The notes under the pieces: model-generated
The model's input: the letters and a program-made list of their open reading frames with translations, nothing else
Told to the model about the DNA's origin: nothing
The model's database searches: none
Assembly (NCBI RefSeq): GCF_964355755.1
Contig: NC_092676.1
Span: 30,026,871 to 30,090,870 of the forward strand
Direction: 5' to 3'
Length of the DNA stretch: 64,000 nt
Source of the DNA: Antedon mediterranea
Lineage: Eukaryota > Animalia > Echinodermata
Made by a program: the position numbers and the translations under genes
Part shown: in pieces, positions 18,034-49,962 of the stretch
How the letters are laid out: every line of letters starts with the position of its first letter
Numbering within the stretch: the first letter of the stretch is position 1

Positions 18034-21000
18034 ATGGGAATAGATGCAGCAATTGCAGTGTTTTTTGCTGGATTCATAACATTAACAATAATAAATACAG
18101 TCGTATATCCGTCATCTGTTAATGGTAGGTATTTATTATGGTTGTAATTTTTGTTTACTTGATCAAATAATCTTTCTTTTTTATTTCAGAATCAAATATA
18201 ACATTCCATTTAAACAATTTAAAACCATTACTTATTACACATTTTATTTATATGACAGCCCTCAATAATAAAAAAATACTGAAATCAAAGAAGTGTAGCT
18301 TCCAAATTATCACTGTCAGTCTAGGGCAGTAATTTAATTTCATTCTCTCTGGCACAAGGAGACACAAATCTGTTTGGAGCTCCTTTCGTTGGTACAGGTA
18401 CATGACAACAGAATATTATAACAATTAACAGACAAATTAGTTTTATGCTTCAATCTTTGTACCCAAACTGTTGTCTTTTCAGAAACAACTAAAGATTTAA
18501 AACAAGAAACTAGCTTTAAAAGTAGACATTTATTGAGTGTTGAAGAAGATTGGGTTGAAGAAACTCCTATTCCTCAGGTAATAGTGACTGACTTACTTTT
18601 TAATAACAATCTTACAGCACATGGACTGTTTTACACAGTCAACTGATCAGTGGAAAGCAAACTGTGAGTGATAACATTTGCAATGGATTTTTTGACAGAG
18701 GTGAAATCTTGTCTTGTGTATTATACCACGTCCATACTTCTATGATATCACATACCTGGTCACAAATTTGTTTCTTTTCTTTGTCCATGTTAAGTTGACT
18801 TATGAAATATCAGGTGATACTTATCCAGAGGCGGTGGATGGTGGTAGTATACTTGAGTACACATGCTTACTTGTCTACAAAGTGGAACCAGAACATACTG
18901 CAATCAATATCTCATTTGAGGTAATGTTTTTTCATTTATAAGACTTAATTTTTGTTTGCAATTTTTTTATACATAAAAGTACACTAAACTTCATTAAACG
19001 ATCCAAATCTGTAACTACAGATTTTTTTCTGGTCAATTTGTTTATTAGGGTTTTTTTTTACACTTGTTTTAAACAGTGCATAGAGATATGTATTTTGCAC
19101 TATACATTTAAAACCATTAACTATCCATGGCACTTTTAGTTGAGCTGTAATTTGGTGGTTGGCAATGCTTTCCTTCCAATCCTAAGGTCCAGGGTTCAAA
19201 TCCTGACCATCACCATATCACTCATTCCAAGTTTTATCAACTCATGACTCTTTGAAAAAGAAAGAGATACAGATGAGACTGGCTACAGTATAATGTTATC
19301 AGTAATGTAATGCTGTCTTGTAAATGTGAATTATGAGCATATTTACTGTTAATATTCTTATAGCAATTTTCTTAAATGCTGGTGTACTTGAGATCTACGT
19401 TTATACCATGCTATACACTTTATTTTAATTATTGATATATACAACATTGAGAATAAGAGACTTATTTATTAAAATATTTAATATAATAATAATCAATATT
19501 GTTTCAGGTTGATCTACCATTCAGTTCATTTCATGAGGATTCTTTCAATGTCACACTTTATAGTGAAGCTCTAGGTATTTTACCCCACCAGACTATTGAT
19601 GAAAATGTAGATGATGAAAAGTCCAAAGCTGCTGTGAAGATTCTTCACTTGTTTCACGATCCCATTGTACAAAAGGTAGTACAGTACTATATTTAATTTT
19701 GTATGATTTATTTACTATTTATAAATGCCAATTAGTCTTACATTCATCTGAATTATAAATTAAACTAAGCCAGGACCTTGTCATTTTTATCATTGATCAA
19801 GGGCTTCTCTCGTCCAGACAAAAGACATAAGCCAATACGTTTGGGGTAGGTACTAGTTGCACAGGGCTGCCATAAGAGTCGGCAGTGCTGTGTTTCAAAT
19901 GCCTGATGGAAACCAAGCGTACATTTTTGCAACAACATATTATTTTTAGAATGAATTACTAAAATAAAATCCTTGTTTTGTTTAACTCAGGTATATGTGA
20001 AAGTGGATATATCAGAATCAATGTGGGTTAACTTAACTGAGCCATGGAAGCGGCCAGATTGCTGGTGGGTGCCTGCCTTTCCAGACTGCTATCAAACTCT
20101 ATATTCCGGTAAATAATAATAATAATATGTAGCAATTGGCAATTTAGAAGATACTTGATACTTTCTTGATGTTGATGGATGTTGATGCATGTTGATGGTT
20201 AACAAGCTAAACAGCTTATATGACCCTTCCTTTTCTTTCTTCTTTTACACTATGCTATAATTAATGTATAGATGTTTGAGAGATACGGGTATGAACAATG
20301 TTTGTATTAAAAAGATAACTGTAAGTAATGAAAATATTTGAGTTTAGGTGTTAAAGAGGATGTGCTAATAAGTGCGAAAGAGTAAACTTGCAGTCAAGAG
20401 ATGTTCTAACTCATTGGTCTTTTCTTAAAGATTTATATACTCATTTTGACCACCATCCACATTTATATATACTTAATGATTTATAAAGAAATGTAAGTAT
20501 TATTTGTGGAAAATTAATAAACAACAAATTATTTTCAAACTATAAAACAATTAAATTGATTAAATTGAGTTTTATTTCCTCAGAATGTGTGTTCTATGAT
20601 AAATCTCCAGAACAAACGTGGGACCCAGCTTATTGCTATCAGTTTAAAGTATCGGACTGTCTTCCATTTAACACTACCACTGAATGTTACTACATCAATA
20701 CAACATCATGTCTCATGGCCTTGATCGCAGATGCAGAGCGCCCTCAGGATATGCTATGTCCAACGGATGTCAACGAGACTGATTGTATCCAGATTAACGA
20801 TCGCGGATTGTTCTTTACTCAGTATGACTTCAGTGTTCCAACTGTTGCTCCAATCCCTGAAACATACGAGAAAGATTTTTGTGGCATGTCTATGGAAAGC
20901 ATTTGGAGTATGTAACATATTTCATAATGAATTTGGATTTTTGGATACTCTCTAATCATTAATTGATATGTTTGCAGTATATTTTTTAAATTTTTTTTAT

Positions 21001-24000
21001 TACATATGCATTCAACAACAGCCAGCACAAACTCTCCAATTACAGGATGGATAAACTATTACGAATTATCATGCTTATAAACTAAGTCTCATTTGAAGCT
21101 TAAGCTTGGTTCCCACTAGAACGTAACGCAAGGACGTAAACGCAACGCAATCGTTTTAACCAATGACAAGCGAAGTTATAGACAGTTAGCAATCACAAGC
21201 GAATAAGCCATCGCTTGTGATTGGTCAATTCACTTGCGTTGCATTACGTCCTTGTGTTGCGTCGCTAGTGGGAAGGAACCACGCTTCAGGGAGTGGAGTT
21301 GAAAAAGGTGTGAGTTAGCTACAGCTCCACTATTTGGCAGAATATTTTAAATAAAATTCAATGTGGTGTTTTTAAGCTTTACATTTACTGTCCATTGTTA
21401 TGATCTTTTAACATTTCTACCTTAATTATAATTTTTTCAATTTAGTGACAGAGGAAACAGCATATGAGCGGCAGTATACATACGACAGTACGATCGAGGA
21501 AGATGAAAACGGTTGTGTGCGTGTACTCATGCGTATCAAACCAATTATTACAACACCGCCACCAACGTACAATCCATACAAAGCTTTACGTAAGACAGAA
21601 AAGTACATAAATGCGAAGACTTGTATGAATGCAAACACTACAGGATTCTACACACAACCTATTCAGCCAATTAATTGGAAAGATTTCAATATTACAATTT
21701 TGTTCACTGGTAGGCACATTTATTCTGCAATATATAAATATTTACCAATTATTTACATTGTTACAGGGATCTTACAGAGAAAAGTAATTTTCTGTAGTCG
21801 CAAGACCCTTTGAAAAAATCGTATTATCTTAACTTGAGAAAAAAGTGTCTGTTTGACATGAATATAAATAATAAAATCAAATTATTTGCATTTTTTGTTT
21901 ACAAATATCATAATTGATCTTGTTTTAACTTTAAATTTGTAGGTGAAATTTTCAACTATGTTGAAGTAAATCAAGTTTTAGTTTCAGAAGTTTATGTAAA
22001 CATAACACAAAGTACTAAACTCATTAACCAAATAAGACGTGTATTTGGTAAGTAAAGTTTTTAAACTTCTTTATCTCTTCTTTAATAAATAAGTTCAGTT
22101 TTAGGATAGAATTGTTTTGATATTTGATTTTCCGTTAATTTGTTATCTTTCTATGAGACAGGCACCATTATTTCCACTTGTTTTGTGAATGAAATAAAGT
22201 TAACTTATCTTAGAAATATAATTTCTTAATGTTTTTAAATTTTTAGCCATTCAAAAAATACCAATAAAAAGACCAGGTTACTGGGTATACAACAATCCAA
22301 CATTTTCCGATCGTAATTTCACCCTGAAACATGAACAAATACTTCACCACGGTGTTTTGATCCACCCCGAAGCGTTCAACCGCGGTTTCACCATGACGAT
22401 TGATGTTCCAAAGGTTGATGATGTATACTTGGCCAAATTTGAAAACATCACACCATGGTGGAAGACGGGAAAACATTTTGCAGCGATATCAGATTACCAT
22501 ATGTTTAATTCAACCTATAATACAAATGGCGACGAATTAACTTTGGAAACTGTAATAGATAAGATGGAAGGTTATTATGATGGGGATAGCAGATTGCCAG
22601 ATATCACTTCTGAATGGGTTGTCGAACAAAATGATTACGGAGAAGAAATAATTGTTCAGTGTATATTTTCCGTCACACCATTTCTCAATATTAAAGATGT
22701 TGTTTGGCGCGACCACGGAAGATTAAATTTTTATTTGTATTCTCGAGTTCTTTCATCAGTGGTGGCTGATAATGAGCTTAAATTTTCTATCACAGCCGAT
22801 TTTAAGTTCCCACCAGGAGATGAACTAATTCTGTATGCGTCTAGGACGAGCACCGTGACTGTTCAACCGTTTGTGCCACGTATTCCGCCAGTCAATGCCA
22901 CTCAGGAACCAGACTGTCAAGATGACATCACATATACTTTTGAATTATTCAACATTCTGGAATTTTCTATCAAGGATATCTGGATGAACGTGACTTGTCC
23001 CGATTTAGTTATCATACCGTCGACGCTTGAAGTTGAAATTATTCACCATGTTAATGTCACAAGTGATAGCAACGCTGATATCATGCTTACTACAGATCAA
23101 ACATATCACATACATTACACAGAGTTGGCTCCTCAAGTACTTGCAAGAGGGCAGCAGACATTTCGACTGGTCAACAACGGTATTGCGCCGCATTACTCCA
23201 TTGTTTGCAAAGTTTATCTTTCATTTCGCAAGGATAATAAGGCGTTAGTCCTTCCATATTTGGCAGGTGTCAGTAATGAACTGTTTACACCTGGCATTGA
23301 GTATATTTTATATGGGCGTGATTTAATTGAGAAGGAGGAGGAAGTTATGATATTGACAACACCAATGAGTAGGACTACTGTGTTGTTAGGAAATGCCACA
23401 GCTGAAATTCCTATTATGGTGGATGAAGAAGTAAGTTATGGCGTGGAAGAAGAGACAACACCTCTAATGTACTCGATGCCTGTTGGGTCAAATGCAACAT
23501 TCATTATAAATATAACAGTACCAGAAATAACCACAGAGGTCAGTGGTAAATAGTAGTAGTACTGTAAGATCTATTTTCCAATGATGCACATGTCTAAAAA
23601 GCTCTGTCAAATCAAATTAGTTTGTGTGCCCAAATATGCTAGTGATATGCTTAAATATGGTAGTGATATGCCCAAATATGCTAGTGATATGCTTAAATAT
23701 GGTAGTGATCAGATTGCATTAACATTTATTTGGAACAGTCCTAGAAAAAAGGTAAAAAACAAGCATATATTTACAATAAGTTAAATGAGTTACATCATAA
23801 TATCCATATATGGACACATCTCATTTTTCTTGTCAAACTGGTTTGATAGTGTAGACAGAGCTCAATTGTTAAAATGTACTTTTTAAATGTTGATCTTGAT
23901 TTTATTTTGTGTATATTAATTATACAGTAGTAGTTTTTAATTATGCAAAAATGTGTCATTATTCCTTCTATTCAATAAGATTTCATCTTTTTTTAGATTG

Positions 24001-27000
24001 AAATTTATTTTGGTATGCCAGCAGCAGTGTTAGCTGTCTATTATTCCAGAATCATATTTATTGGTGGAAATATAATAAACCTGGATATGGTTGATCTTGA
24101 GAAAGGAAGCGATATCATGGGTAAGAATGGACACAGTGCTTGACTGTTAGGAGCAGAACAGTCCTTCAGGCCACCCATATTAAAAGGACACCCCTATTAA
24201 AGGGACACATGTTCCCACATTGCTGCAGGTCTTTCTGAATTACTGTATATGAGCCTCCCCCACATGATTATTTCATTGTATTTATCCTGTATGTTATTAT
24301 ATTGTGGTAATAAAATTAAATTGAAATATTGATTGGTAAAAATCACAGAAGCCTGATGTTAAACTATAATTAGAACCCTGAAAATTGAACCCCATTTATT
24401 TTGTATTATTTGAATGTATTTCTTTAAAGAATCATGGGACATGACTACCAGAACAAACTTAAAACAGAAACTGGGAAACTTAACCAATATTGCAGATAAT
24501 TTAAGAAACGAAAGTGGTAAGTTTCCTTAATATTCTTAATACAGCTACATCATATCATGTTATGATGCTTGGCTACCAATCCAAGGGTCCTGGGTTTAAG
24601 TCATATATGTTAGGATTTTTTCTAATGACAAATTACAACTCCACTCCCAAAGACTTGTAATAAGACTTATGTCTATACTTAGATTAGTATATTCTTTATT
24701 TTCTCATAGATAACATTGTTCTTGAGTTTAATGTTGTACTCCTGGATGAAAAAGAAACAGTTGTAAAAGATACAGAACATGAGTTTAAGACAACTGTGAT
24801 TTACACAAATGGACAAGACTTAGTACAGCAACAGAGTGTAGCAGTATTAGAACCTGACATCCAAGTGTATTTGAGAGTAGCCAATGAAAGCACAAATGCA
24901 GATCCAGGTAATGTACTGACATTACTAATATGTACTCACTTTTCCAGCTCACATACATGTTAGCATTCTATCATTACTAATAAGTACTCACTTTTCCAGC
25001 TCACATACATGTTAGCATTCTATCATTACTAATACGTACTCACTTTTCCAGCTCACATACATGTTAGCATTCTATCATTACTAATACGTACTCACTTTTC
25101 CAGCTCACATACATGTTAGCATTCTATCATTACTAATAAGTACTCACTTTTCCAGCTCACATACATGTTAGCATTCTATCATTACTAATACGTACTCACT
25201 TTTCCAGCTCACATACATGTTAGCATTCTATCATTACTAATACGTACTCACTTTTCCAGCTCACATACATGTTAGCATTCTATCATTACTAATACGTACT
25301 CACTTTTCCAGCTCACATACATGTTAGCATTCTATCATTACTAATACGTACTCACTTTTCCAGCTCACATACATGTTAGCATTCTATCATTACTAATAAG
25401 TACTCACTTTTCCAGCTCACATACATGTTAGCATTCTCTGCATGTTGTCATAAACAAACACTTGAATATTCAAGAGTTTTAGGTGAACAAAATTATTATT
25501 AGTGAAATATTTCAATTTTTAAAATGTTCTGTTTTGTTTATTACTGATAATTGTTAATAAATAAAAAAAATATGTTTTAAATGCTGTATCAAATCTGTAA
25601 CTTTTTATATAGGTTTAAGTTGGCTTGTGAGCCATAGACCTTTCTTGTTCAAACATCATTATTGAGCACCTTTAAGTCACTCTACTCAAAACTCACATTT
25701 TCTGATGTTTTTGGCTGCTCCAGGAGCAATGACTGGAATGGATTGATTGATGGAAAAAAATAAGTGAATGAAAATGATTTTGACTTTTTTGTACTAGGTG
25801 AAATCTTCCAGTATTATATAAAAGTAAATCACACGTCAGTATCGCAGTCACCAGCCCACCACATAAATGTTACCATCCATCTACCATATATGATCATAAA
25901 CAAACACTTTCTGCCTTATGAATATTCAAGAGTTCCAGTCAGAGGTAAAAAATTTGAACCAGGCTTTGAATATGAAAATGATGAGATTTTGCTACTGTAC
26001 CTCTATAAACTAGATTTGGATGAAGTCATCGAAGGAACATTTCTTGTGCAGATAACAACGAAACTTATGGAAGGTAAACTTAAAATTTGTGAATATGTTA
26101 TGAAAAAAAGAGAAAAAAAAGAGATATTAAACTTTTTAAATTGTATGATGTCAATCATGACGTAATTTTGTACTTTATACTAAGTAAGTATGGGGGAATC
26201 AAGCCCATCCTCTACCTCTATACCACCAAGCCTGCCCTGATGGCTAGGGGTTAGATTTTCGAATCAAAGTATAAGCAGCGTTTTGTTTAAACTGTCTACA
26301 CTATCAAACCAGTTTTACAAAAAAAGTGTAATGTGCCCAAATATGGTAGTGATGTGACACCACCATGTCCATATATGTACATTTTTTTGTCACATTTTGC
26401 AGGTATTTGTTTACAAGCTCAAGTTAAATACGAAATGTCTAGTTTCTACCAGTGGGGGCGGTACTACCCTTACACAACAGTAAGTGAAAATGTCCTCAAC
26501 ATTCGCAATGCAACTCTTAAATTTATTGGAACTTCTCTTCACGATACTCCTGACAAATTGGTTGCCATCCATGAGCAAGTTACATACAGAATTACCATAC
26601 CTCTGCCTCCAATATCCAGCAACCTAACCATAGAGATATTCCTACCTACACGAAATGTAACACGAAAGATCTGGGAAGTCTTACAAATACAAGAGGAGAT
26701 TCCAGAGGTCCTGCCAATCGAAGAAACTTTTTTTGATAATGGCTGCTATACTGTGATGAGACCATGCTTTTGTTATGGAGCTGGAAATATGTCTTTCGAT
26801 GCCAGCTGGTTTATTTCGCGATTTACTTGTAAATTGAAAACTGACCAGATGTGTACCAACTCGACAGATTTGGACACCGGAGAAAGCAACATAACAAATT
26901 GTGATTACTCACCAGATGTGTACAGCAAATGTCGAAATTTATCTAAAGAGATGTGTTTCCAAAATGAAAATGTGACCACTTATCTACAAACTCCAATATC

Positions 27001-30000
27001 ACACTTTCAACAGATGGCTTGTAATATGTCAAACAGTACTATGAATAACAACGGTACAGCATTTAACCATTCATCCTCCTTTCCCTGGAATTGCACAGTT
27101 CATCGAACAGAGGCAGACTTATGTCACGAGTTCTCCACCAGTTTCTGTGAAAATGCACTATTTACTGAGTGCAGTTATTCTGGGGTTCCTCATCATCACA
27201 ACGAAAGTGAGAGTATGAATGTTACAAAACTTCATCTTGACGATTATATCGGCAACTGGAGTTGTGCTTGTTTAAAAGAAACTGAAGAAGGTAATCTAAT
27301 TTTGTTTCATTTAGATTTAAACCCAGGGGCACAGAGCATGAGCAATATAATGTAACTACCCAGTAAGGCCTCTTAGGAGTGCTAAACCAGGGGCCTTAAT
27401 TGCCCCATGTTTTAAGCCACTGTTATTAGTAATCTGATATTGATGATGATTCATGGTATATTAATTCACTCAACAATTAAAATCATACACGACTGACAAT
27501 CATTATGTAATAATTATTTCCAATCAATTCTTAATCTTGAAGTAGTCATGTCTCGGGACTATTCTATAGCCACCACGGATAGACTTTCTTCATCACATGC
27601 TTCTATGAATGGATGACTTTTGGGTGCAGGAACTCTAGTCAATCAAACTCAGTACCATTTTGATTTCATGATCATTAAAAAAATTTCCTCATCTAATTAT
27701 TTCTAATAAATTCTTAATCTAGAGATTCAAGATGTAAAAGATCCATTTGAAGGTTTAAATTTAACAGCCATATTGGAAGGACACTACAACGCATCCAAGA
27801 AGCCATATCAGGTTTGCTCCTCATTACTTGCCAACAAATCGTTGCTAGCAAAACCCATCAAGCCTTCTGATGAACAACCTTACCAGAATCTATCGTCATC
27901 AGATCATCAGAATCTAACAGAAGATGAAGGATTTTATCCGATTCCAGATTTCTGCTTTGAAGAAACTATTATTGAGCTAGGAATGGCAAAGGTTGTTAAT
28001 ACTTCAATTGTAACAACAAGAGAGGGAGTTATTTGCACTTTTACAGGTGGAAATAATCACAATCCTCACCAACCAGGTGAGAATAAGTCTGTTAACTTAA
28101 TTCAAACCACTTTATATTAAGTTCTGTGGAATACTAAATGCATACCTTAAATGTGTTTCTATGTAATACCCATAACTAAGCACCTGAATGTCTAGGTACT
28201 CCTCATGAAACCGCCTGTAGTGCATTATAACGTTCAAGTTATATTACAACCTTTGACTATTTCTACCTAAAATTTTTATAGCTGCTTTTTCTTGAATTTT
28301 TCGTTAAAATATAAATCTTTTATATTTGTAGGTGTTAAATATAAGGCTATGAACCTACCAGGCTTTGGGTTAGGAGGCGATTCGGTATCAGTATATGTTA
28401 CCATGGTGATATCTGACGAGGTAGAGAATGTCCGAGATGAGACTCTGTTTATCAATGCTTCATCTACTTTCATGTACTTGAACATACCAATACCGCCACC
28501 ATTGAGGTACGAAGAAAACTGCACATGCTCAAAGCCGCTTACACACTATTTTGACGTTGACTACCCACTTGACTGTGGATGTGAGTCGATGTATCTCGTA
28601 GGTCATAAACGCGACCTTTGTAACTGTACAACAACATTTCACGAAATCGAAGAGTCATATTTTAGTGCGCCCTCATGTGATTGCGTTAATTTCTGCGAGA
28701 ATAATGTACAATACTTCTTCAATCAACCAATGGTTAAGAACCTGGCAGACTTTGATAATGCAACATGTGATTGTGGATCGTATAAGGACTTTTCAAATTC
28801 ACAGAATAACTTTGATTATTTATCAGAATGTCGAGAGATGTATTTTAGAAATTACACTTGTCAAAATGTCAATCATACTGTTAAGAAAACTGTGGAGGAA
28901 TGTCGGAATATTACAAGCAAGAACTGCTTAGAGGTCAATGAACTACAAGATATAAATGTTGCCTGGTTGTGTCAATGCTCATCTGACGGTCTAAACTGTT
29001 CCTGTGAATTTGACAGTTTTCCGTTGTCACCAAACTTTGCAAATTACTCCATTGTTGAATGCCAGAATATGCCATGGGTTAAAACCAATGACGGTTATAA
29101 CGGTGACATTTCATTGTGTGATTGTCACATTACAAATGGGTCTCCTGCAAAATCTTGTCACTGTTCTGGAGTTTGTTCAATACATATTACAAATTCATGT
29201 ACTGCATACAATCACACATTTTGTGAAGATGTCACACATTTAAGAGAATATCTCGTTAATGATGGACTCTGTATTTGTGAAAAATTCTATGGGTCAAATC
29301 ATACCATTCAAGACGCTTTAAGATTATATAAATACCATAATAATACCAAAATAATTTTGAAAAATCAAACCATGAACGGCATTGAAGATAGTCAGTTTAA
29401 AAATGGAACGTTTTTAAATGTCACAATGTCAAATTCCACAGCTACTAATGCCAATGAAACCACTCAAGTTTTGTATAAAGATCAATTGAGCTTGGATGAC
29501 TTTGTCTTGTACTGTAATTGTTCAGATGTAGATATAATCATTCCAGATATCAAACCAGTACAATGTAAAGAGATCGCACCAAAAGAAGTCTTTGTCTGCC
29601 AGTGCTTCGTGCCGGCAGATAACGAAACTCAACTAATTTTAGACAATTGGGATTATAACTTGACAATTGTTGACGAAGCTGTAACTTACCTTGGCGACGA
29701 GTTTGTTGTTATTGAACCCGAGTTAGAGATATCATTTGTACGTATTGAACCGAATCCGGTTGATATCGTTGATAGTTTAGACTTTGTGAAGTTTGGATAT
29801 AAGATCCAGCACACTGATTCATCCAATTCACCAGCGTACAACTTGACCCTATTCCTTGATGCTGTTAACTTTACCATTACAAACGGCAGCGGTAAAGTCT
29901 TACCGACTGATATTTTATCCAGCCGTTCCTGCTCCGATGAAACTCTTTGCGAAATCTCTTACGATAATGAGGTCGGACATTTCCATTTAGGATTTCTTCC

Positions 30001-33000
30001 AGTAGATGTAGACGGTGCTTCCTTTGAAGGCACGTTCTCTTTAGCTCTCCGAGATGATGTTGATTTCGTTGCCAACAGTATCATCAGCGGAACAGGAATC
30101 CTATGGTATGATAGCTGTGTTGTAGACTTTCCTGGTCGTCTGTATGGTCCAATCAATTCCTCAGACATCTGCCATATCTATGCACCAAACATCACTGCCA
30201 AACTAGAATTCACCACTGCGTATGCATATATGTATCAAAATGAAGAGTATGGCATACCAAACACTTTCTCCATTGGTGACTATGTTGACATTCGTGCACA
30301 TCTGTGGGTTCCTGAAATCACGTTAAATGTTGCTAATTACAGCATCAGTGGAGATAACATGTTCTCTTTCACACCAGTGATGGCGGTGATGTTGTTGACG
30401 GACAGGATCTACGTAAGAAATGACACTGCCACATTCTTTCTAGATCAGCGTCACAATCCGCATGATAATGAATTCCACATTCTCTATCCTGATGAACAGT
30501 ATGACACAGCGGAATTCACAGACAAGGGAATTGCGTTTATACCAGGTAAACAGATTATGAGTTTAATTTTAGAGTATATTAAGCTCTTTCTGCACACTAT
30601 CAAACTATTTTGACAAAGAAAAGTGTGATGTGCCCAAATAATATGCCCTAATAATATGGTAGTGGTGTGACATCAGACTTTGTTTCCTTGTACTAGTCCC
30701 ATATCCCTTTATAACGTTACACCATATAACTCTTTTAAACATTTATGACTGTTTTTGTTTTAGGTGTTCTAGTAAACCAAGCAGATAATATAGCATCACC
30801 TGAAGATTATCTCCTGTTAAAGTTCATATTTACTTTAAAAGATGACCCACTCTGGAAACAAGATGACATCATACCCTTCACAGTATCTGTTGTATACTAC
30901 AGTGATTATGACGGACAACTTTTGACATTGATTGACAAGAATGTTGAATTAAAGGTCGTTGAACCCAGACTGACACTTAGAGTTGAGGTAAAGTCTAATG
31001 TGCAGTTAAAAATGCTACTGAAGTTCATTATATACTGTGCCATCATCAAAAACATTCACCTACCTTTTTTGTGTTTTAAAATTTAAAAAAAAAAAAAAAT
31101 ACAGTGGCTTAAAAGCTATAAGCAATCACTATGGCTAAACCCAGAAACCCTAAAGGTTAAGTGCTCCCAGAGTATGAGCAGCCCAATGTAACTACCCAGC
31201 GTTTGGGGTCTTCTCCATGGCTGTTCTTAATCTTTACTATTTGACTTTCAGATTCTTGATTATAAGTGGCAGGTTGAACAAGTACAGAACACAACAGGTT
31301 ACACTTGTGTAGAGAACACTTGTTGTGAAGATGGTGAGCCTTGTGATACAGGCCGTGTGTGTGTTACAGACTCTTCTGATATGGACAATTGTGAGACTCA
31401 CAGGTACTCCTGCACCACATACTCCTAATACAATAATTTGTCTAAAGCTCTCTCTACACTATCAAACTTTATGTGACAAAAAATATATGGACACATTTGA
31501 TGTCATATCACTACCATATTTGTGCACATCACACTTTTTTTATCAAACTAGTTAGATAGTGTACATAGAGTTAAAATGTATTCTGCAAATATGTCTTGTT
31601 TAACCCTTTTGCATAAAAATGTATATCTGCTGTTTAAAAAAATATCAACACTATTCCATTCCAGGTGTTTATGCTATTCTGGATTTGCATTGAATGCTGA
31701 ATCCACCTGTACTGCTGTGGGACGTACTGCTGGTGATATACTCGTGTTTGGACTGACTGTATTTCACAGCCAAGAATATACTGGTTAGTAGGCCTAAATA
31801 GTGAATTGAATAGATTGCAAACGAATTCAGTTGATTTTAAATAAATATTTTCATTTCAGGTAATGCATTTGATCTTTACATAACGTTATACAGTGACCTC
31901 AAGTCTGACCTTCTACCAGATACTGACACAATGGGTCACATCCCTACAGATGGTTACCTTGGTAATGTAAGGAAACCACGATTAACACAAATAAGTGACC
32001 ACGAATTTCAACTTTATGTTCATCGTTTTGATCATGTAGTGAGCTGCGAACGTTTTACAGTGCCATTCAGGATTAAGCCTTCTTTACATGTGTTTGCAGG
32101 GCAAACTTGGGAAGTGGAGGTAAGATTTTTGGCACCAGTCTACCTATCTAAGCTTGTGCTTATTTACCAGCCTACTAGATCTCTTAGATCAGGTGGCTAA
32201 TGTCTGCTAGTAGACTAGTACATCTACTATGGTGGACAAGCTTTTGGTAGCAGCTCCAATGTGGAATTCCTTACCAATTTAAATCAGACAGTGTGCTACT
32301 TTAAACTTTTAGACCCAGTTGAAGTCTTTCTTTTTCAAGTTATTGCCATCTATTTTAATTTATGTACAGCGCATTGAGAGCTTGCTATATGCGCTACAAT
32401 ATATAAGAATGAACTATTATTTATAATAAGTTGTCTAGATTGTGAGGACCAACATTTACATGTAATGAAATATTCTTTTTTTTGTAGGCAACAATGAATT
32501 ACCGTTCTTCTAAGCCGTATGACACGCCATTCAACATTAAATCACGACTGTATGACATGAAAGACATGAATGATACAATCCGATTCCCATTATTCGCTCC
32601 AGCCCCAAGTGTTCGCTTCAAAATGTTACCATCAAGTGGTCAATCTAGCCCAATAAATTTTGAAGTTTTCTCTTCTTCTATGGCTCAAAATGAAGTCATG
32701 GTGAATGTACGAGAAGAAGATAAAATTGTGTTTCAGGCCGAAGTTGTTATACCAAAGATTAAGTGCAGTATGACTTTTAAATTAAATCTACCAGAAGGTA
32801 AAAGATTACTTGATTACTTCTTAAGTCTGGAACCATAATCCATATTTAAGACTACATTGATACATTAAGTATAATAAAGAAAATCAAATCAGTTCATTGA
32901 GTTCTTCATTTTTATCCATTTCTTAGGGAGTGGCATTACACTGGAAAATGTTACCATGGTTTCCATGGGTACTGCAATAGATTTTCCGGAAACTAATTTT

Positions 33001-36000
33001 GGTGAACCACAAGTGACAGAAAGCATTGATGGACAAAAGTTCTTTTTTGCCTATTTTCCTGATATACACAGTAAAGCAAACACATTGAATACTCCACGGG
33101 TAATGTTATTTTAATTTTTTTTTAAATATTTCTTTTCAAAATTTTCATTTTCAAAATATATATGTACTGTATATTCGGCAATAAGTGTTGACAAATTTTA
33201 CCCTTTTCTGTACTATATGCTGTAGTTTTTTTCCGAAAAATATGTTAAAAGTTGTTAATTTATATACTGATATCAAATATTACAAAACAAAAATTTGTGT
33301 TTTTAAGTCTTTAGATTCCACCAAGCAGCAAATGTTCAAGTCAATGAACGGAGAACAGCAGCCGTACCCAACAAACCCAGAATGCAATGCTCTCAATTCC
33401 AGTTTATACGAGCAGACAATTCTTCTAGGGTGTTACCATAATAAAATGTCTTACTTTGGCGGTTTTATAACAGACATGCACCCATCTTTACCTTTCTACA
33501 ATCTATCTCAAGTGATGACAAGGCAGTTGTGTTTGGATCATTGCAGGTAATGATTCTCATAGACTATATTTCCAACTTCTTCATTGTCATACTATCAACA
33601 ATTGATTATTGATTGACAGAACTATGAGGCCCACTAGCTAGCCTACTGTAAAGTAGTGGCTGCGTGTGTGACAGTGGCTGAACTAGTACACCGGGGTAAC
33701 CTCCTACTCGTCTTGAAAAATGTACTGGGTTCTTTAAAGTGCACATGAGTTAGATGTGTACACTGGACCTATGGTTTATAGTTCCTTATCCGAGAAGACT
33801 CTACTCTACCACCAGAACCATGGAGCGAGTGAGCCTCGAATGTGTTTTAATCTCTCTGCCAGGTCACTCGCTCAACATACATACATGCTATCAAGAATCT
33901 ACCAATAAAACTCCTTTTTCAATCAATAAAATCAATCAATCAATGTCTTGATGAACTTTCAAATCAGTAATAGTGTGTATTTATACTTCCTAGTGATAGA
34001 AGATATGATTATGCAGGCCTGCTGAAGGGTGCTATCTGTTTGTGTGGGACTGAAGAGCAATTCATGCAATACTATCAAAATAGAACATTTGAATTGAATG
34101 GCACTTTACATCATGCAACCCTTGATCATTGTAGTACACTCTGTACAGGTACATAAAGCTCTGTCTACACTACAACCCTTGATCATTGTAGTACACTCTG
34201 TACAGGTACATAAAGCTCTGTCTACACTACAACCCTTGATCATTGTAGTACACTCTGTACAGGTACATACAGCTCTGTCTACACTACAAACTAGTTTGAT
34301 GCAACCCTTGATCATTGTAGTACACTCTGTACAGGTACATAAATCTCTGTCTACACTACAACCCTTGATCATTGTAGTACACTCTGTACAGGTACATAAA
34401 GCTCTGTCTACACTACAACCCTTGATCATTGTAGTACACTCTGTACAGGTACATACAGCTCTGTCTACACTACAAACTAGTTTGATGCAACCCTTGATCA
34501 TTGTAGTACACTCTGTACAGGTACATAAAGCTCTGTCTACACTACAAACTAGTTTGATGCAACCCTTGATCATTGTAGTACACTCTGTACAGGTACATAA
34601 AGCTCTGTCTACACTACAAACTAGTTTGATGCAACCCTTGATCATTGTAGTACACTCTGTACAGGTACATAAAGCTCTGTCTACACTACAACCCTTGATC
34701 ATTGTAGTACACTCTGTACAGGTACATAAAGCTCTGTCTACACTACAACCCTTGATCATTGTAGTACACTCTGTACAGGTACATACAGCTCTGTCTACAC
34801 TACAAACTAGTTTGATGCAACCCTTGATCATTGTAGTACACTCTGTACAGGTACATAAAGCTCTGTCTACACTACAAACTAGTTTGATGCAACCCTTGAT
34901 CATTGTAGTACACTCTGTACAGGTACATAAAGCTCTGCCTACACTACAAACTAGTTTGATGCAACCCTTGATCATTGTAGTACACTCTGTACAGGTACAT
35001 AAAGCTCTGTCTACACTACAAACTAGTTTGATGCAACCCTTGATCATTGTAGTACACTCTGTACAGGTACATAAAGCTCTGTCTACACTACAAACTAGTT
35101 TGATGTGTCTACTGTATATATGAGCACATTGCATTTTTGTGTCATAAAAAGTTTAGTGTAGACAGAGCTTTAGACCAGGGAGTTGTAAAATTATTTTACA
35201 ACTCCCTGTTTAGAAATACTTAGTTTTATATGTTAATTTGACCAGGGAGTTGTAAAATTTTACCACTCCCTGATTTGACATCCTAGATTTTTTTCATGTT
35301 ATATATTTCAAAGTAAAAGTTTCTCTCTTTATTATTATTTTTTTTAAATTTCTTTTTTATAGTTCTATTATCAATTTATAATATTTTAGAGGACATAAAT
35401 ATTGATTGTTTTATTGAATTTCGTTCTTTTTTTAAAATGTATGTATCACTATGATACATTCTGTTTGGATTATCTTTTTACGTAACCAATTACATTGTGA
35501 ATGTGTGTGTCTTTTAGGTGAAAATGCCTCTTGTGGGTCGATGGAATTTGCTTTACTGTATGGTCCAATACCTGGATCTGTTCCTAAACAACAATGTGAC
35601 TGGTATTCAGGATTGTATGATGAAACTGAGGTATAGCAATTGTCTAATCTGTAAATTTGATTATATCATTATAACATAATATAACATTGATAACAGCACA
35701 GGTATTTAATTATATTAATATTCGATAAATTTAATTTTTAGGATGTGTTTGTGGTAGAATTCAGTTTATCAATTCATTCATTGGCTACTAAGGGTATAGA
35801 GGAATACCTACACTTACAAGTAACATACGATCATGGAGAAAACAAAACAAGCACACTTCTACCGTTAGCCCCCTATAAAATAGAGGTATGCACATTTATA
35901 CTTTCACTGAGGACGATCGAAGCATATTGATAGAATTTAACTTTTCAGAACTGCATACGTGGTGTACTGCATACGTGGTGTACTGCATACGTGGTGTACT

Positions 36001-39000
36001 GCATACGTGGTGTACTGCATACGTGGTGTACTGCATACGTGGTGTACTGCATACGTGGTGTACTGCAAACGTGGTGTACTACATACGTGGTGTACTGCAT
36101 ACGTGGTGTACTGCATACGTGGTGTACTGCAAACGTGATATTACATTTATATATATCTTGGTATCTTTATTTATATACACATAATAAAATGCATTTTTTG
36201 CATTTTTTACAATAAAATTACAACAATATTAAAATGACATAAAAAACTTAAAATTTATGTATTTATACTGTCTTTGATAGTGAAATTGTTTATGTTGATA
36301 GATCTGATTAGACTTGAACTTGAACTACATTCATAATAAAATGTCTTTATTTGTAGACTGGAATAGTTAAACTTTTGATGAATGTTTATGTATCTCCAAA
36401 AATGAGTGGCTATGTTCCAGGGTATGTTATTTTACATTATTAATACAAACATTTATAATGTGTTCTGCCTTCAATATACTGGAGGTATACAACAACATTA
36501 AAAAACACTTCTATTTTAAAGTACTATTTATTTTATAAAACAAAAACAAAAATTCCATTTTTTATTTTATTTTGAGACAAGTTTTTTACTTCGTAACCAA
36601 TGATGGCATTCCTTTCTCTTATTTAGCTTTTCTTGTTTTTGTATTGTATTACTGTTTCTTATTGTTTATTATTCTTGTATTATTTGTCTTACCATTATAG
36701 AATATAATATATATATATAGTTTAAAATTTTACCAAATAATATATTTTAATTTTTTCAGCGATTATTTAGAATATTATACAGAGGTTCGTCATGCTGCTC
36801 ATTCAACCGTGACTGCGAGGGATGTTTACATTTTGTGGATGTTGCCTAGTTACATAGAGTATGTAAATGTAACCAATCACCCATCACTACCATTTACATA
36901 TAGACACATTGAAGATGTTGAGAATGTTGAAACTGACCCTAGAGTTGGAATCAAGTTTTATGTAAGTGTAATAAAATTGAAAATAGAGCATGAATACAAA
37001 TTTATGTGTTACAAGAATGTATTTTGTACTGTATATATTTGTACTGTCTTTCTTTTCTATTGGACAAAGTTGCAGTAACTATAATATACTATGCCTTAAT
37101 AATACTACACTTATCTACTTTTGTTACTGAGAAGTTAGTTATCTTAAAAATGTTTCAATTAACTGTACCTTATTTTAATAAACTGCACAATTTGTCAATA
37201 AACTGTACAATTTTTCAATTAACTGTACAATTTTTCAATTAACTGTACAATTTTTCAATTAACTGTACAATGTTTCAATTAACTTACCTTCTTTTAATAA
37301 ACTGCACAATTTGTCAATAAACTGTACAATTTTATAATTCACACTACAATTTTTCAATTAACTGTACAATTTTTCAATTAACTGTACAATTTTTCAATTA
37401 ACTGTACAATTTTGAAATTTTTTGAAAATTTAAAAATGTTTAAGTAACTGTACACTTTTTCAATTAACTGTACAATGTTTCAATTTTAACTGTGTTGTAT
37501 ATTCCTCTTCAGTTAAAATTAATCTAATTTGTTTTTGTGACAGGTGAAAACCTTATTCCATGATGACGTGATAGGCTTTCACTTTATGGTGAGACTGGAC
37601 CCACTTCACACCCTTCCACAGGGAGAGTACCATTTGATGTCAATGACACAGGTGTATTATGACTCTTGGGGGATACACAACCATTTTGAGGAAGACTACA
37701 CGTTTGATGTTGTACCCCATGCTCATCCTGTTGTACCTATTAAAATTACATTTGAAGGTAAATTCATTCCATGTCTTTAAGTTGAAAGGGAGCTTGTTTA
37801 GATAAGTTAACATTTGCTGTTGGAACAATCAATAATGTGTTATTTTGGTTCTATTATAGTTCCATCTAAGTATTCAGGACGTGAACAATTGGATGGTGAG
37901 AAAGATTTTTTTATAAATTTCTTGTTTGTTATAGGATATTACATATATACAGTTTTCTTGTTGAATATATTTTTTTTTTTTTTTTTACAGATATTAAATT
38001 ATCAACCTATAATGTTCTGTATGATGAGATTAACAACATTGTGTATGCTTGTTTCTTCAACAATACCATTAATGTGTAAGTTGATCTATATTAATTGAAA
38101 TGTAATCTAATTCAGAAATTTAATGTGCTATACTACTTTGCTTTAATACAATAATACAGTTATACTTATGCTATAGTATAATAATACAGTTATGCTATAG
38201 TATAATAATACAGCTATGCTATAGTATAATAATACAGTTATGCTATAGTATAATAATACAGTTAAGCTATAGTATAATAATACAGTTATGCTATAGTATA
38301 ATAATACAGTTATGCTATAGTATAATAATAAAGCTATGCTATAGTATAATAATACAGTTATGCTATAGTATAATAATACAGCTATGCTATAGTATAATAA
38401 TACAGTTATGCTATAGTATAATAATACAGCTATGCTATAGTATAATAATACAGTTATGCTATAGTATAATAATACAGCTATGCTATAGTATAATAATACA
38501 GTTATGCTATAGTATAATAATACAGTTAAGCTATAGTATAATAATACAGCTATGCTATAGTATAATAATACAGTTATGCTATAGTATAATAATACAGCTA
38601 TGCTATAGTATAATAATACAGCTATGCTATAGTATAATAATACAGCTATGCTATAGTATAATAATACAGTTATGCTATAGTATAATAATACAGTTATGCT
38701 ATAGTATAATAATACAGTTATGCTATAGTATAATAATACAGTTATGCTATAGTATAATAATACAGTTATGCTATAGTATAATAATACAGTTATGCTATAG
38801 TATAATAATACAGCTATGCTATAGTATAATAATACAGCTATGCTATAGTATAATAATACAGCTATGCTATAGTATAATAATACAGTTATGCTATAGTATA
38901 ATAATACAGCTATGCTATAGTATAATAATACAGTTATGCTATATTACTGCTAAAGCTATGCTAAAAAACTTATAGTTTTTTTTTTCAGTTATAAAGGTGG

Positions 39001-42000
39001 TTGTTTCATGACTGGAGATCTTCCATCCTATCTCACAGAGACACCTCACACATGTGAAGATTACTGTAACTGCACTTACTTAGAAAATCATCTGACTTTT
39101 GATAACTGTTCGAATTACGAACCACGACCTTCTAACTGCACTTGTGGTTGCGTACCAGATTGTATTGAAGATATGATGTCTTGTGAAATAGACTGCTTAA
39201 ATAATACATTCAGTAACGCTGATTTAAGCTCATGCTTAGCTGGTTGTAAGCGTGTTCAGGTAAACTGCACACAAGGATGCTGTATAGACACATGTGACAA
39301 AGATTTAGACTTGTGTCTGCTGAATAACTGTGTTGAGTGCAATTATTTTGCAAACTGTTCTGTTGAGTTGAAATGTGCAGAACAGTGTATTTCAAAGAAT
39401 GACGGCTGCAGTCAGACCTGCATTAGATCACCAGTAACATGCCACGAGAACTGTTCGAGTGCATCATGGGATTGTTTATTAAATTGTAACCAACTTTGTG
39501 GAGAATCTACAAATACCAACTGCAAGGAGTATTGCTATTCAGACTGCCTAGCTGATGAAAACCGATGTCTTAGCGATTGCTGTTACACAGATTGCAATGT
39601 GAATGCAACTCTTTGTACTCAACAGTGTTCCACTGATTGTAGGCTTGATGGTAACTGCATTATATCATGTTTATCTAACTGTAATTCAACTGGATTTACT
39701 TGCAATGAAACATGCGCTGCTCAAGTTTATGATTGTCAAGATAACTGTAACCAGAATTGTTCAGTAACCAGTTGTACAGTTATTATAGAAACGGATTGTG
39801 CTGAGGAAGAGGTCAATGACCTTGTGGAGAACATCTTAACAAACTATAGTTTAACAAATCTACATAATAATGGAATTATTGGTCTTGAAAAAGCTTCTTT
39901 GATGTTGACATCTGTAAATTGTTCCGGAAACTCTTGCACAACAGAGTTCCAGGTGACAAATACAAGCAGTAGTTGTTCTGCCACAGCTACAGAATACTGC
40001 CAAACAGATCTGGATTCATCTTGTGCTATCAACTGCGTTGGTCTTTGTGAAGCAACGTCATCATGTATTGGGGAATATCTTAATTGTTTGGACACGTGTG
40101 GCAGTGACCCCACTGGGACTTGTGATGTAGTCTTATTAAGAAACGTTTCAATCGATTTCTGTTTAATTGATGCATTGAATTGTATTCTGATGATGAGTAA
40201 CTGTTATTTAAGTTGTAATTCATCAGAATCGTGTTTAAAATGTGATGACGTGTACTGTGCCAGTAATTACACCCAGTGCGTGGAAATAGTTACCATGGAC
40301 AACAGAACATATTCAGCAGACAATGTCTTACATCAGACTTTAAATTTAACTGATGGTAATTCATGCTTGTCTGAATGTAATCGCAACTTAACCAAGTGTC
40401 AGCAAGTTTGCAGACAACATAATAACGTATCATATATCTGTCATTCTACCTGTTTAAGAGGGCATTATGGCTGTGCGTCACAATGCTTGACGTACATCAA
40501 CGAACAATCTATCTGTGGTATTGCTGATTCTACTACAAATACCAATGAAACAAACTTAATACATAACAGTGAATGCAACAGACAATGTGAAGATGACTTA
40601 GTTATCTGTAAGCAGTTATTCTCGCACATAATGAACAGAACAGTTAATAATATTACAACTGAACACTATTCTATTGCTGTTAACTGCTCGAGTTATAAAG
40701 AATGTGGCGATATCTGTAGCAACCTCTGCGCCAACACGCCCAGCTGCAGTATGTTTTCTTGCCAAGCACAATGTGTTCAGGATGCAACACATGGCGTATG
40801 TCACTCCGAAGTGAATTGTACCATTCTGAAGATGTGCGTAGAACATTCCCGGCGTAGGCGCAGAGATGCTGATCTCTTCCCAGCAGATGTAACTTTTGGT
40901 AGCTCATATACGACATCTAGAAGATTAAACCAAGAACCACTTAATCATACCTTATTGGTTGAAAGTAGAAAAAGACGGGAAGCATTTATTGCTAAAGAAA
41001 ACTCATTCAAAACTGTTTCAAGTGAATCCGATCTTGGTAATGTATGGAGTAATACTTTTGATATGAGGCACAACATCCAGCGGATCCGAAGGAGTTTACA
41101 CGACGCTGATATGAATAATACATATTTGAATATTAGTATCCAAGATGGCGGCGGGTTTGTAGAATCACAATGCACCACTAGGAATCAGCACTTAGAGTAT
41201 ATAAAATGCCTTGATACTTGTCTCGTTTATCCTAATGTATCAACAAATAATGTTAGCGGGGGTGATGTTATGAATAATGCCTCGCTCCAGAACACCTCTT
41301 CAAGTATTGGATGTGATAACTGCCAGAACATACAGCCGTCGTCACATGCAAGATGTTACACATTGTGCAACCAAACGGATGCATTTTGTTCCGCTAACTG
41401 CAGCAGTAACTGTACTACGTCTAATAACTGTAGTTGCAGTGAGTTCTGTAACAGACCTCTTGCAGAATGTTTGGCAATTTGCGATAAGACTTCTCTTAAC
41501 AGTTGTAATTGGTGTCGGTCGCTCTCTTGTGAAGAAGACTCATTCTGCTTGTGTGACAGAGTTTGTGTAAACATGACATTTATCGAAGTAAATAACAGCA
41601 AATGTGTTAGCGAATCCTATTGTACTATTTTACAAGAGATGTGCTTCTACGACTGTGAATGCAAGTTGCCACAGTATATATTCCGACATTGGAGAGGTAA
41701 GTGTATTTACCTTTTATTTAATTTGTAACAAGTAAGCAAAGCCATTCACACTTTGGCTAATGGAAATATTAATAAACATTTCAAAATAATATATAATAAT
41801 AAAAGGAAAATCTGTAATACTTATTGACTATGATTAGTTGATTAGTGAATATTAAAGGAAACAACAACAATTAGAAAAATTGCCTTATCAGCTAAGGACG
41901 GAGTAAGTGACGTGAATTATTTAAGAAAAGTGTCTCGGTAAATGTGATGGTGAATACGGGCACTGTTAAGCTTGGTTCCCACTAGAACGTAACGCAAGGA

Positions 42001-42821
42001 CGTAAATGCAACGCAAGCGTTTTAACCAATGACAAGCGAAGTTATAGACAGTTAGCAATCACAAGCGAATAAGCCATCGCTTGTGATTGGTCAATTCACT
42101 TGCGTTGCGTTACGTCCTTGCGTTGCGTCGCTAGTGGGAACCACGCTTTAGTCCCTACCTCACAATAATACAATGTAGGCCTACATGTTTAAGTACACTT
42201 TAGTTACTTAAAGTAAATTGAAATATCGCAGGTTTAAGTCAAATAAGACGCATATGAGGTTAACAGTACAGCATTCTATATCTATGCTTTTTCTTTATTT
42301 CAATTGTTTAATAGGATTGGATTCGAACGTTGGTAACCTCCTAGGTTTACTACCAGAGCCATACACTCTGTACGGCCTCGCACACGATGGACGAGCAATC
42401 ATGCAAAGCTTTGATTTTGGTGCCACGTGGGCGGCGATATTGAAAAGTGTATGGCTGGAAGCTAAAGATAAAGAACAATATATTGAAGCTACTAACTTGG
42501 AAGAGATTTTGAATTTAGAGCCAAATCTTGTATTTCAATCGGAATTTCAAAATGACACTTTTGGTGGTAAGTTCTCATTCTTATCTCATGTCAAAAATTT
42601 CATTCTGCGCACAAAATTGGCAGAATGACCCTTAGACTCAATAGCTGGTACTTCACGAAAACGAAAAAACTCTTTAATTCTTTTGCCTTCTTTCTGTATA
42701 GTGTCGTCGTTCCATATAGCACGTTTTAAATTTTCCTTTTTCAGTGTCTGGTGTTGGAATCCATTTCTTGAAGACGGTCTACGAATGGAAAGTAGATGGA
42801 ACTTGGAACTGTTGTAAATGA
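18034..42821 (+). CDS. giant uncharacterised secreted Cys-rich multidomain protein, ~4,071 aa, 33 coding exons
   Basis: Exons 18034-18124, 18483-18577, 18795-18920, 19508-19675, 19991-20108, 20584-20907, 21446-21709, 21943-22047, 22247-23538, 23997-24120, 24430-24516, 24710-24907, 25798-26073, 26403-27290, 27723-28076, 28332-30545, 30764-30987, 31252-31403, 31665-31783, 31860-32119, 32488-32797, 32927-33099, 33308-33546, 33994-34148, 35518-35630, 35742-35885, 36357-36421, 36760-36961, 37544-37757, 37991-38075, 38989-41696, 42315-42566, 42745-42821. All GT-AG with matching phases, total 12,216 nt. Hydrophobic N-terminus, many N-x-S/T sites, no obvious TM helix, ends WNCCK*. Confidence 0.85.
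19150..19212 (+). mobile_element. tRNA-derived SINE head fragment
   Basis: B-box-like ggttcaaatcc after an A-box-like stretch; similar fragments at ~17668-17700 and ~24560-24602. Confidence 0.4.
24920..25437. repeat. 52-bp intronic minisatellite, ~10 copies, each with an acceptor-like motif
   Basis: Unit cattactaat(ac/aa)gtactcacttttccagctcacatacatgttagcattctat, starting 13 nt after the exon-12 donor. Confidence 0.95.
32150..32425 (+). mobile_element. 3' end fragment of an L2/CR1-type LINE
   Basis: Degenerate RT-tail-like stretch (agctccaatgtggaattccttacc) followed by the gtacagcgcattgag...gcgcta...tattatt tail typical of L2 3' ends. Confidence 0.45.
33650..33860. mobile_element. SINE with Deu/Nin-like conserved domain (second, inverted copy ~51440-51650)
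   Basis: tgtacactggacctatggtttatagttccttatccgagaagact resembles the DeuSINE core as I recall it; the reverse-complement homolog at ~51445-51555 is seen directly. Confidence 0.5.
34113..35104 (+). repeat. 57/72-bp tandem array x15 made of exon-24 end + splice donor + left TIR of a family B MITE
   Basis: Unit caacccttgatcattgtagtacactctgtacag|gtacataaagctctgtctacacta[caaactagtttgatg]; 6 short and 9 long units; the MITE completes only after the last unit. Confidence 0.95.
35169..35279. mobile_element. two short palindromes with 7-bp TSDs (probable P-superfamily excision footprints)
   Basis: tttagac|cagggagttgtaaaattattttacaactccctg|tttagaa (35176-35208) and atttgac|cagggagttgtaaaattttaccactccctg|atttgac (35243-35272). 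Confidence 0.65.
35950..36137. repeat. 16-bp tandem repeat (actgcatacgtggtgt), ~11.5 copies
   Basis: Read directly. Confidence 0.95.
37150..37492. repeat. degenerate 20-bp tandem repeat (aactgtacaatttttcaatt)
   Basis: Read directly. Confidence 0.85.
38150..38943. repeat. 24-bp tandem repeat (tatgctatagtataataatacag[t/c]), ~32 copies
   Basis: Read directly; fills most of intron 30 of the giant gene. Confidence 0.95.

Positions 42822-49882: not shown

Positions 49883-49962
<80 letters not shown>

Follow-up and report, generated by a model that had tools for sequence, protein, structure and literature searches.

In a 64,000-nucleotide stretch of the genome of the crinoid Antedon mediterranea (positions 30,026,871 to 30,090,870 of contig NC_092676.1; hereafter the window), a predicted gene on the + strand (18034..42821) likely encodes a single secreted protein of 4,083 amino acids. 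About half of this protein consists of 11 alternating beta-sandwich modules of two kinds, A and B, and a C-terminal domain, and the other half of six cysteine-rich stretches. Sequence comparisons support homology of the two-module scaffold to bacterial DUF11/TIGR01451 and TIGR04226 repeats, and several of the cysteine-rich stretches appear to be inserted within scaffold domains. From the N-terminus the order is signal peptide, B0 (insert 1), A1, B1, A2, B2, A3 (inserts 2 and 3), B3, A4, B4 (EGF-like insert), A5 (WSC-like insert), B5 and the C-terminal domain (insert 6), all encoded on the same strand. The scaffold amounts to 2,004 amino acids with 16 cysteines and the six inserts to 2,020 amino acids; the whole protein has 215 cysteines.

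Homology of the scaffold to bacterial A-B arrays

The B3-A4 part of exon 16 was used as query in a sensitive profile-free search of 1.84 billion representatives (one per 50% cluster). Ten matches were obtained at E ≤ 0.001, the first being RefSeq XP_071957041.1 of A. mediterranea itself (P0001); among the others were the bacterial protein P0010 and two eukaryote-like proteins made of tandem units. P0006, P0007 and P0009 were dropped from the ten as low-complexity chance matches. P0010 scores above the cut-offs of TIGR01451 and TIGR04226 (70.1 versus 24 bits for the DUF11/CLIPPER test). Through it, another 31 bacterial proteins were reached, 28 of them annotated as DUF11. Strict A-B alternation is seen in nearly all the bacterial homologues. 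In many Chloroflexota proteins among P0016-P0046, the (A-B)n array is fused to a sortase domain at the C-terminus (PF04203, in 12 of 31 rows).

Profiles built from bacterial A and B modules only were run in a six-sequence search. They matched crinoid A2 (E 1.1e-7) and B2 (9e-7), a pair without cysteine-rich insert (23296..26503, aa 781-1123) that is 42% (A2) and 51% (B2) identical to its counterpart in the acorn worm Ptychodera flava, a hemichordate. Matches were also found to B3 (2e-4), B4 (6e-4) and B5 (4.4e-4; 36357..37753, aa 2872-3030). With a profile from 10 non-animal A+B units, the gene model scored 67.7 bits (best domain 45.5), whereas 200 locally shuffled copies reached a maximum of 2.3 bits (best domain 1.7), with any domain reported in 122 of the 200, showing the repeat is beyond chance. 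A-B order, module lengths and motifs are in register with bacteria across three consecutive modules. As a lead only, DUF11 clusters came top in the ESM Atlas, at 0.87.

AlphaFold was applied to B3-A4-B4 with an alignment of 31 sequences, 27 of them bacterial. The model reached pLDDT 73.5 and pTM 0.64, with values mostly between 70 and 94 in B3 and A4 (29711..30957, aa 1964-2306) and low across the EGF-like insert of B4 (30958..32589, aa 2307-2527). The B3 model resembles the CLIPPER/DUF11 structure 9IFR (Z 12.1, rmsd 2.3, 118 of 123 residues aligned), BcpA (Z 12.1) and RrgB D2 (Z 11.1, rmsd 3.1), and the A4 model resembles SpaD 4HSS (Z 10.5, rmsd 3.0, 131 residues aligned). In these predicted models, which derive from a mostly bacterial alignment, both modules are CnaA-like Ig beta-sandwiches of 7-9 strands. 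The bacterial alignment itself matches 9IFR at E 6.5e-4.

Several observations weigh against this homology. Crinoid and bacterial modules are just 15-19% identical, and A1, B0, B1 and A4 are individually non-significant with the bacteria-only profiles. The divergent A1 and B1 (22267..23295, aa 438-780) were placed by position and motif only, and the assignment of B0 (18569..22266, aa 60-437, split by insert 1) is weak, the bacterial B profile giving E 0.42 in the crinoid and 0.0012 in Ptychodera. For the last 1,590 residues, the searches found no homologue. The fold match is partly circular, given the share of bacterial rows in the alignment; unrelated beta-sandwiches score nearly as high (BBSome chain Z 10.1, cohesin 9.9), and a single-sequence AlphaFold model reached only pLDDT 34. 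Because of these close unrelated folds and the alignment bias, the homology claim rests more on sequence order and motifs than on fold. A word-based search with the B3-A4 exon found nothing among 3,284 candidates, at a sensitivity so low that it also missed P0002 and P0004, two records that match exon 16 and stop at its boundary; locus searches using bacterial queries likewise found nothing.

A generic animal Ig-like repeat with a convergent likeness to bacteria would fit the low identity, the high rank of integrin legs in Foldseek and the library results: the DUF11 (PF01345), TIGR01451 and TIGR04226 models gave no match on single exons or on the animal proteins P0001-P0004. The in-register order, lengths and motifs over three modules and the distance to the shuffled copies argue against convergence. 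A related objection is that the 3' third of the model could be a separate gene, as the Ptychodera record XP_070564843.1 (P0003) stops at residue 2490. However, A5 and B5 carry the repeat period on beyond this residue, and the end of the record coincides with an exon boundary in the crinoid, as expected of a truncated gene model. We regard either version of this alternative as very improbable.

Homology to the bacterial repeats does not extend to their chemistry. All three residues of the Lys-Asp-Asn triad are present in 72 of 104 A modules and 98 of 156 B modules from bacteria; of 20 animal modules checked, none has the full set. In the best-aligned animal modules (A2, A3, B2 and B3), the triad positions hold mostly hydrophobic or small residues. 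Judged from these residues, the animal modules are not isopeptide-forming and have lost the triad. The earlier note on this DNA had compared the repeats with DUF11 and pilin D2 domains; homology is borne out by the bacteria-only profiles and the A-B register, but formal family membership and the isopeptide bond are not. The protein has 11 tandem modules in its middle part after an N-terminal hydrophobic stretch, four of them weakly assigned, and lacks the cell-surface anchor or sorting signal of a fibrillar adhesin. In its working it may be likened to a DUF11 stalk, yet it is not a formal member of the family.

Cysteine-rich inserts in the scaffold

The limits that the earlier note gave for six inserts agree within ~50 nt with those of our model. 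Inserts were excised by script, and the bacteria-only profiles were run across the joined flanks. For A3 (26504..29710, aa 1124-1963), which lies in three pieces around inserts 2 and 3, the joined sequence scored 25.0 bits compared with 15.4 for the best piece and 7.6 for the native sequence. Joining raised B4 from 14.4 (native) to 19.3 bits and A5 (32590..35885, aa 2528-2871) from 7.7 to 12.5 bits; joined B0 scored 7.7 bits against 7.0 for its best half. In Ptychodera, A3 (11.8 versus 3.5 bits) and B4 (23.5 versus 17.0) also gained upon joining, but B0 did not (13.8 versus 14.0).

When all possible restart sites were ranked, the true junction came first for A3 and B4 in Ptychodera, and in alignments the EGF-like insert, between strands one and two of B4, stands opposite a clean gap in the bacterial homologues. 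The crinoid ranks count against mid-domain insertion: the true restart was never first, coming second for A3, B4, A5 and B0. For A3 and B4 the top-ranked site was the corresponding one in another repeat, and for A5 and B0 it was a cysteine-rich chance site. Two further results point the same way: the Ptychodera B0 junction fell outside the top six, and the signal at the second A3 junction was weak. Overall, the claim of the earlier note that inserts lie inside domains is supported for the EGF-like insert, the WSC-like insert and insert 2, whereas for inserts 1 and 3 it is weak. On inspection, insert 6 may divide an Asp-box-like motif; no homologue of its flanks was found.

Cysteines are kept to differing degrees between the crinoid and Ptychodera. 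Insert 1 (20039..21672; ~207 aa, 12 Cys) is 45% identical with all 12 cysteines kept. Insert 2 (26651..27973; ~297 aa, 17 Cys, 19 sequons) is 21% identical with 12 of 17 kept, and insert 3 (28481..29662; ~394 aa, 34 Cys, 12 C-x-C pairs), ahead of the last A3 strand and present also in P0002 and P0004, is 27% identical with 32 of 34 kept. Inserts 2 and 3 are thereby the most divergent parts, scaffold segments being 31-65% identical. All nine cysteines of the EGF-like insert (31270..31716) are kept. Its label stands on the cysteine pattern and a cEGF match below the library cut-off on exon 19 (E 0.025, 14.9 versus 26.6 bits). The WSC-like insert (33308..35630, exons 23-25) was named from its cysteine pattern and a similarly sub-threshold match to WSC (PF01822; E 0.019, 15.6 versus 27.8 bits) on one of its three exons; whole P0001 gave no WSC match. 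Insert 6 (38996..41668; ~891 aa, 117 Cys, 39 sequons) shows C-x3-C spacing 42 times and C-x6-C 20 times. Pfam gave no match for insert 3, insert 6 or the scanned part of insert 2.

Intron positions are mostly non-equivalent between repeats, and a symmetric exon cassette (phase 0-0) occurs only at the WSC-like insert; exon shuffling hence accounts for one insert of six. In the eukaryote-like protein P0008, an SRCR domain (E 5.8e-9, residues 1072-1163) sits between two B-module halves, indicating that the scaffold tolerates inserts elsewhere too.

A probably secreted protein and its possible roles

The gene model, built by hand from a three-frame reading, comprises 34 exons from ATG at 18034 to TGA at 42819-42821. 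Its spliced coding sequence of 12,249 nt has no internal stops, close to the ~4,070 aa and 12.2 kb estimated at first sight, and the translation contains 10 of the 10 motifs noted then. Each of the 33 introns follows the GT-AG rule, and the donor sites fit the consensus, with G at -1 in 30 and A at +3 in 29 of them; GC content is 38.4% in exons versus 30.2% in introns. RefSeq XP_071957041.1 agrees with the model at 3,783 of 3,801 residues and lacks model residues ~1-62, 797-833, 862-930 and 1307-1445; apart from 797-833, these parts are matched by counterparts in Ptychodera XP_070564843.1. The exception, a stretch of exon 9 (near 23340-23455, about 37-42 aa), is open in frame and absent from both the RefSeq model and Ptychodera. 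It may be an intron, a lineage-specific insertion or a short internal duplication. An intronic tandem repeat (34113-35105) holds many copies of the end of exon 24 including the donor site, one of which the RefSeq model takes as an extra 18-aa exon; the repeat could lead to variable splicing or reflect an annotation artefact.

Differences between sequenced copies were drawn from four sequencing runs that cover the gene up to its 3' part. We used 31 of the 40 best-supported of 65 differences, omitting nine high-depth repeat rows. Of 18 coding differences, 10 are silent compared with 27% expected (p 0.01). As contigs from the four runs cross introns without splice joints, the runs are DNA and silent on expression.

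Exon 1 (18034..18124) encodes a predicted signal peptide, the sole strongly hydrophobic stretch of the protein in a hydropathy scan, and the Ptychodera homologue has a likewise hydrophobic N-terminus. The scan of the whole protein revealed no transmembrane or GPI-type hydrophobic tail, and the C-terminus reads Cys-Cys-Lys; the secreted nature proposed before is supported. After the signal peptide, exon 2 encodes an R-H-L-L motif (near 18524) that is kept in Ptychodera and that we take to resemble a site-1-protease-type propeptide cut. The protein carries 125 N-glycosylation sequons and is likely heavily N-glycosylated. Furin-type R-x-R/K-R sites lie in insert 6 at aa 3693-3694, 3732 and 3770 (near 40850, 40967 and 41081). 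Together, the signal peptide, sequons, furin-type sites and lack of an anchor point to a secreted, processed glycoprotein. The C-terminal region (37754..42821, aa 3031-4083) consists of a short leader, insert 6 and an end piece of 118 aa that contains a single Asp-box-like motif (aa 4006); a word-based search of low sensitivity with the C-terminal 117 aa found no homologue among 96 candidates.

We give a probability of about one in two to the protein serving mucus or a surface coat as a structural, adhesive or protective rod, with the cysteine-rich knobs as sticky or cross-linking parts. Crinoids and acorn worms are mucus-using suspension or deposit feeders, and the mucus or coat setting is favoured because both known owners feed in this way; it is the least supported step of the explanation. 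As CnaA-type beta-sandwiches, the 11 modules would line up into a rod, ~45-50 nm long if each domain spans 4-4.5 nm as generally held, with the former isopeptide positions taken by ordinary core residues. The model for such a rod would be the DUF11 stalk as portrayed in PMC12617251. Inserts would sit in loops and project sideways, as D3 does from the CnaA domain D2 in RrgB and BP-2a (PMC4420484). Furin might trim the last insert, with disulfides keeping the pieces together, and terminal or unpaired cysteines, the terminal Cys-Cys being a candidate, could join chains into a network. A partner for the single conserved cysteine of B4 may be the ninth cysteine of the EGF-like insert.

The same architecture might instead serve innate immunity or microbe binding, the rod presenting variable cysteine-rich and WSC-like modules that agglutinate microbes or particles. 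WSC domains are carbohydrate-binding. The strong divergence of inserts 2 and 3 would suit such a role, and this faster change, which fits recognition as well as structure, also weakens the case for a purely structural rod. Between sequenced copies, 1 of 8 differences in the scaffold is replacing and 7 are silent, compared with 7 replacing and 3 silent ones in the inserts (Fisher p 0.025). In addition, SRCR, F5/8C and C-type lectin domains are encoded by the next gene downstream. However, relaxed constraint would explain the variation equally well, only 18 sites are involved, the gene is single-copy within the 64-kb window, and insert cysteines and positions are kept across phyla. An immune role appears unlikely.

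We judge it similarly doubtful that the protein belongs to a reproductive or developmental coat (egg jelly, fertilisation envelope, larval glue) or to a skeletal or connective-tissue matrix. Large secreted cysteine-rich proteins with furin sites are, as a matter of general knowledge, typical of such coats, and sea star Sfp1 (PMC9382459) is of similar size (3,853 aa) and cut into subunits. Against this, Pfam scans showed no vWD, C8, FA58C or other footprint-protein domain, nor did exons or P0001-P0004 match vWD-C8-TIL assemblies of the Sfp1 or gel-forming mucin type, and by inspection the protein is neither notably acidic nor low-complexity, unlike typical spicule matrix proteins.

Besides this gene, the window contains genes for tubulin and for lectin-domain proteins as well as remnants of transposons. 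The tubulin open frame (4707-5678, -) matches Tubulin and Tubulin_C above cut-off. A Tc5/pogo-type transposase remnant (16114-17037, +; HTH_Tnp_Tc5 E 3.5e-7, weak PHD) lies 1 kb 5' of the start codon. Downstream, one or more multi-exon genes (45001-58730, +) carry SRCR, three F5/8 type C and two C-type lectin exons, broken up by SCAN-like and reverse-transcriptase remnants at 54038-56009.

Relatives, origin and comparison with known systems

Ptychodera XP_070564843.1 aligns with residues 10-2490 at 36.6% identity and has the first nine modules and four inserts at the same places. More distantly, the eukaryote-like P0005 is an A-B array of about eight near-identical 392-aa units without cysteine-rich inserts, and P0008, by inspection, combines an A-B array with SRCR inserts and a membrane-type tail. 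None of these proteins, nor P0002 or P0004, has a function or family name. Comparable uncharacterised proteins may also exist in corals and molluscs. In a quick tree of 66 B modules, including 45 of the 156 bacterial ones chosen at random, crinoid modules pair with Ptychodera modules, and all eukaryotic modules stand apart from the sampled bacteria (SH-aLRT 98). This module-by-module pairing indicates that the array, along with four inserts or more, is older than the split of the two lineages. Branches are long and there is no nesting, so the tree neither identifies a donor nor demonstrates transfer; given the eukaryote-like homologues, ancient inheritance is as plausible. A possible scenario, which we put forward tentatively, is that a eukaryotic and animal family arose from a bacterial alternating CLIPPER/pilin-D2 stalk, taken before the echinoderm-hemichordate split, lost its bonds and became a display scaffold for EGF, WSC, SRCR and new cysteine-rich folds.

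A gene shared by two animal phyla that has retained the A-B array of bacteria, and not the bond, would extend this fold family to animals. The gene offers a test case for the source of animal pilin-like stalks and a natural map of loop sites accepting large inserts, with at least four cysteine-rich modules lacking a family match. In the literature covered, which excludes subscription journals, we found no description of the crinoid protein or its family, and none of six taxon terms occurs in the supplement text of PMC12617251, whose large tables could list animal entries. The protein is apparently an undescribed animal variant of the fibrillar-adhesin stalk that lacks cross-links and bears disulfide-rich knobs.

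The closest known systems are the DUF11/CLIPPER and TIGR04226 stalks (9IFR; PMC12617251), which share the tandem CnaA-like sandwiches, A-B alternation and motifs, seen here in 32 bacterial proteins. The crinoid gene differs in being intron-rich, in scoring below library thresholds, in lacking triad, sortase and anchor, and in devoting half its chain to cysteine-rich inserts. The same 2025 survey reports DUF11 from bacteria and archaea and judges eukaryotic isopeptide hits to be false positives or contamination; an extension of the fold to animals would be consistent with its view on bonds. In the four-domain backbone pilins RrgB and BP-2a (PMC4420484), D3 is laterally inserted into the CnaA-type D2. 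That insert is another Ig-like domain and the subunits are polymerised by sortase, in contrast to six disulfide-rich inserts in one chain. Sea star footprint proteins Sfp1 and Sfp2 (PMC9382459) are very large secreted multidomain proteins that are cut into subunits and form an extracellular meshwork. They have vWF-type and lectin domains and autocatalytic cleavage, none of which was detected in the crinoid protein, so that here the analogy is functional only.

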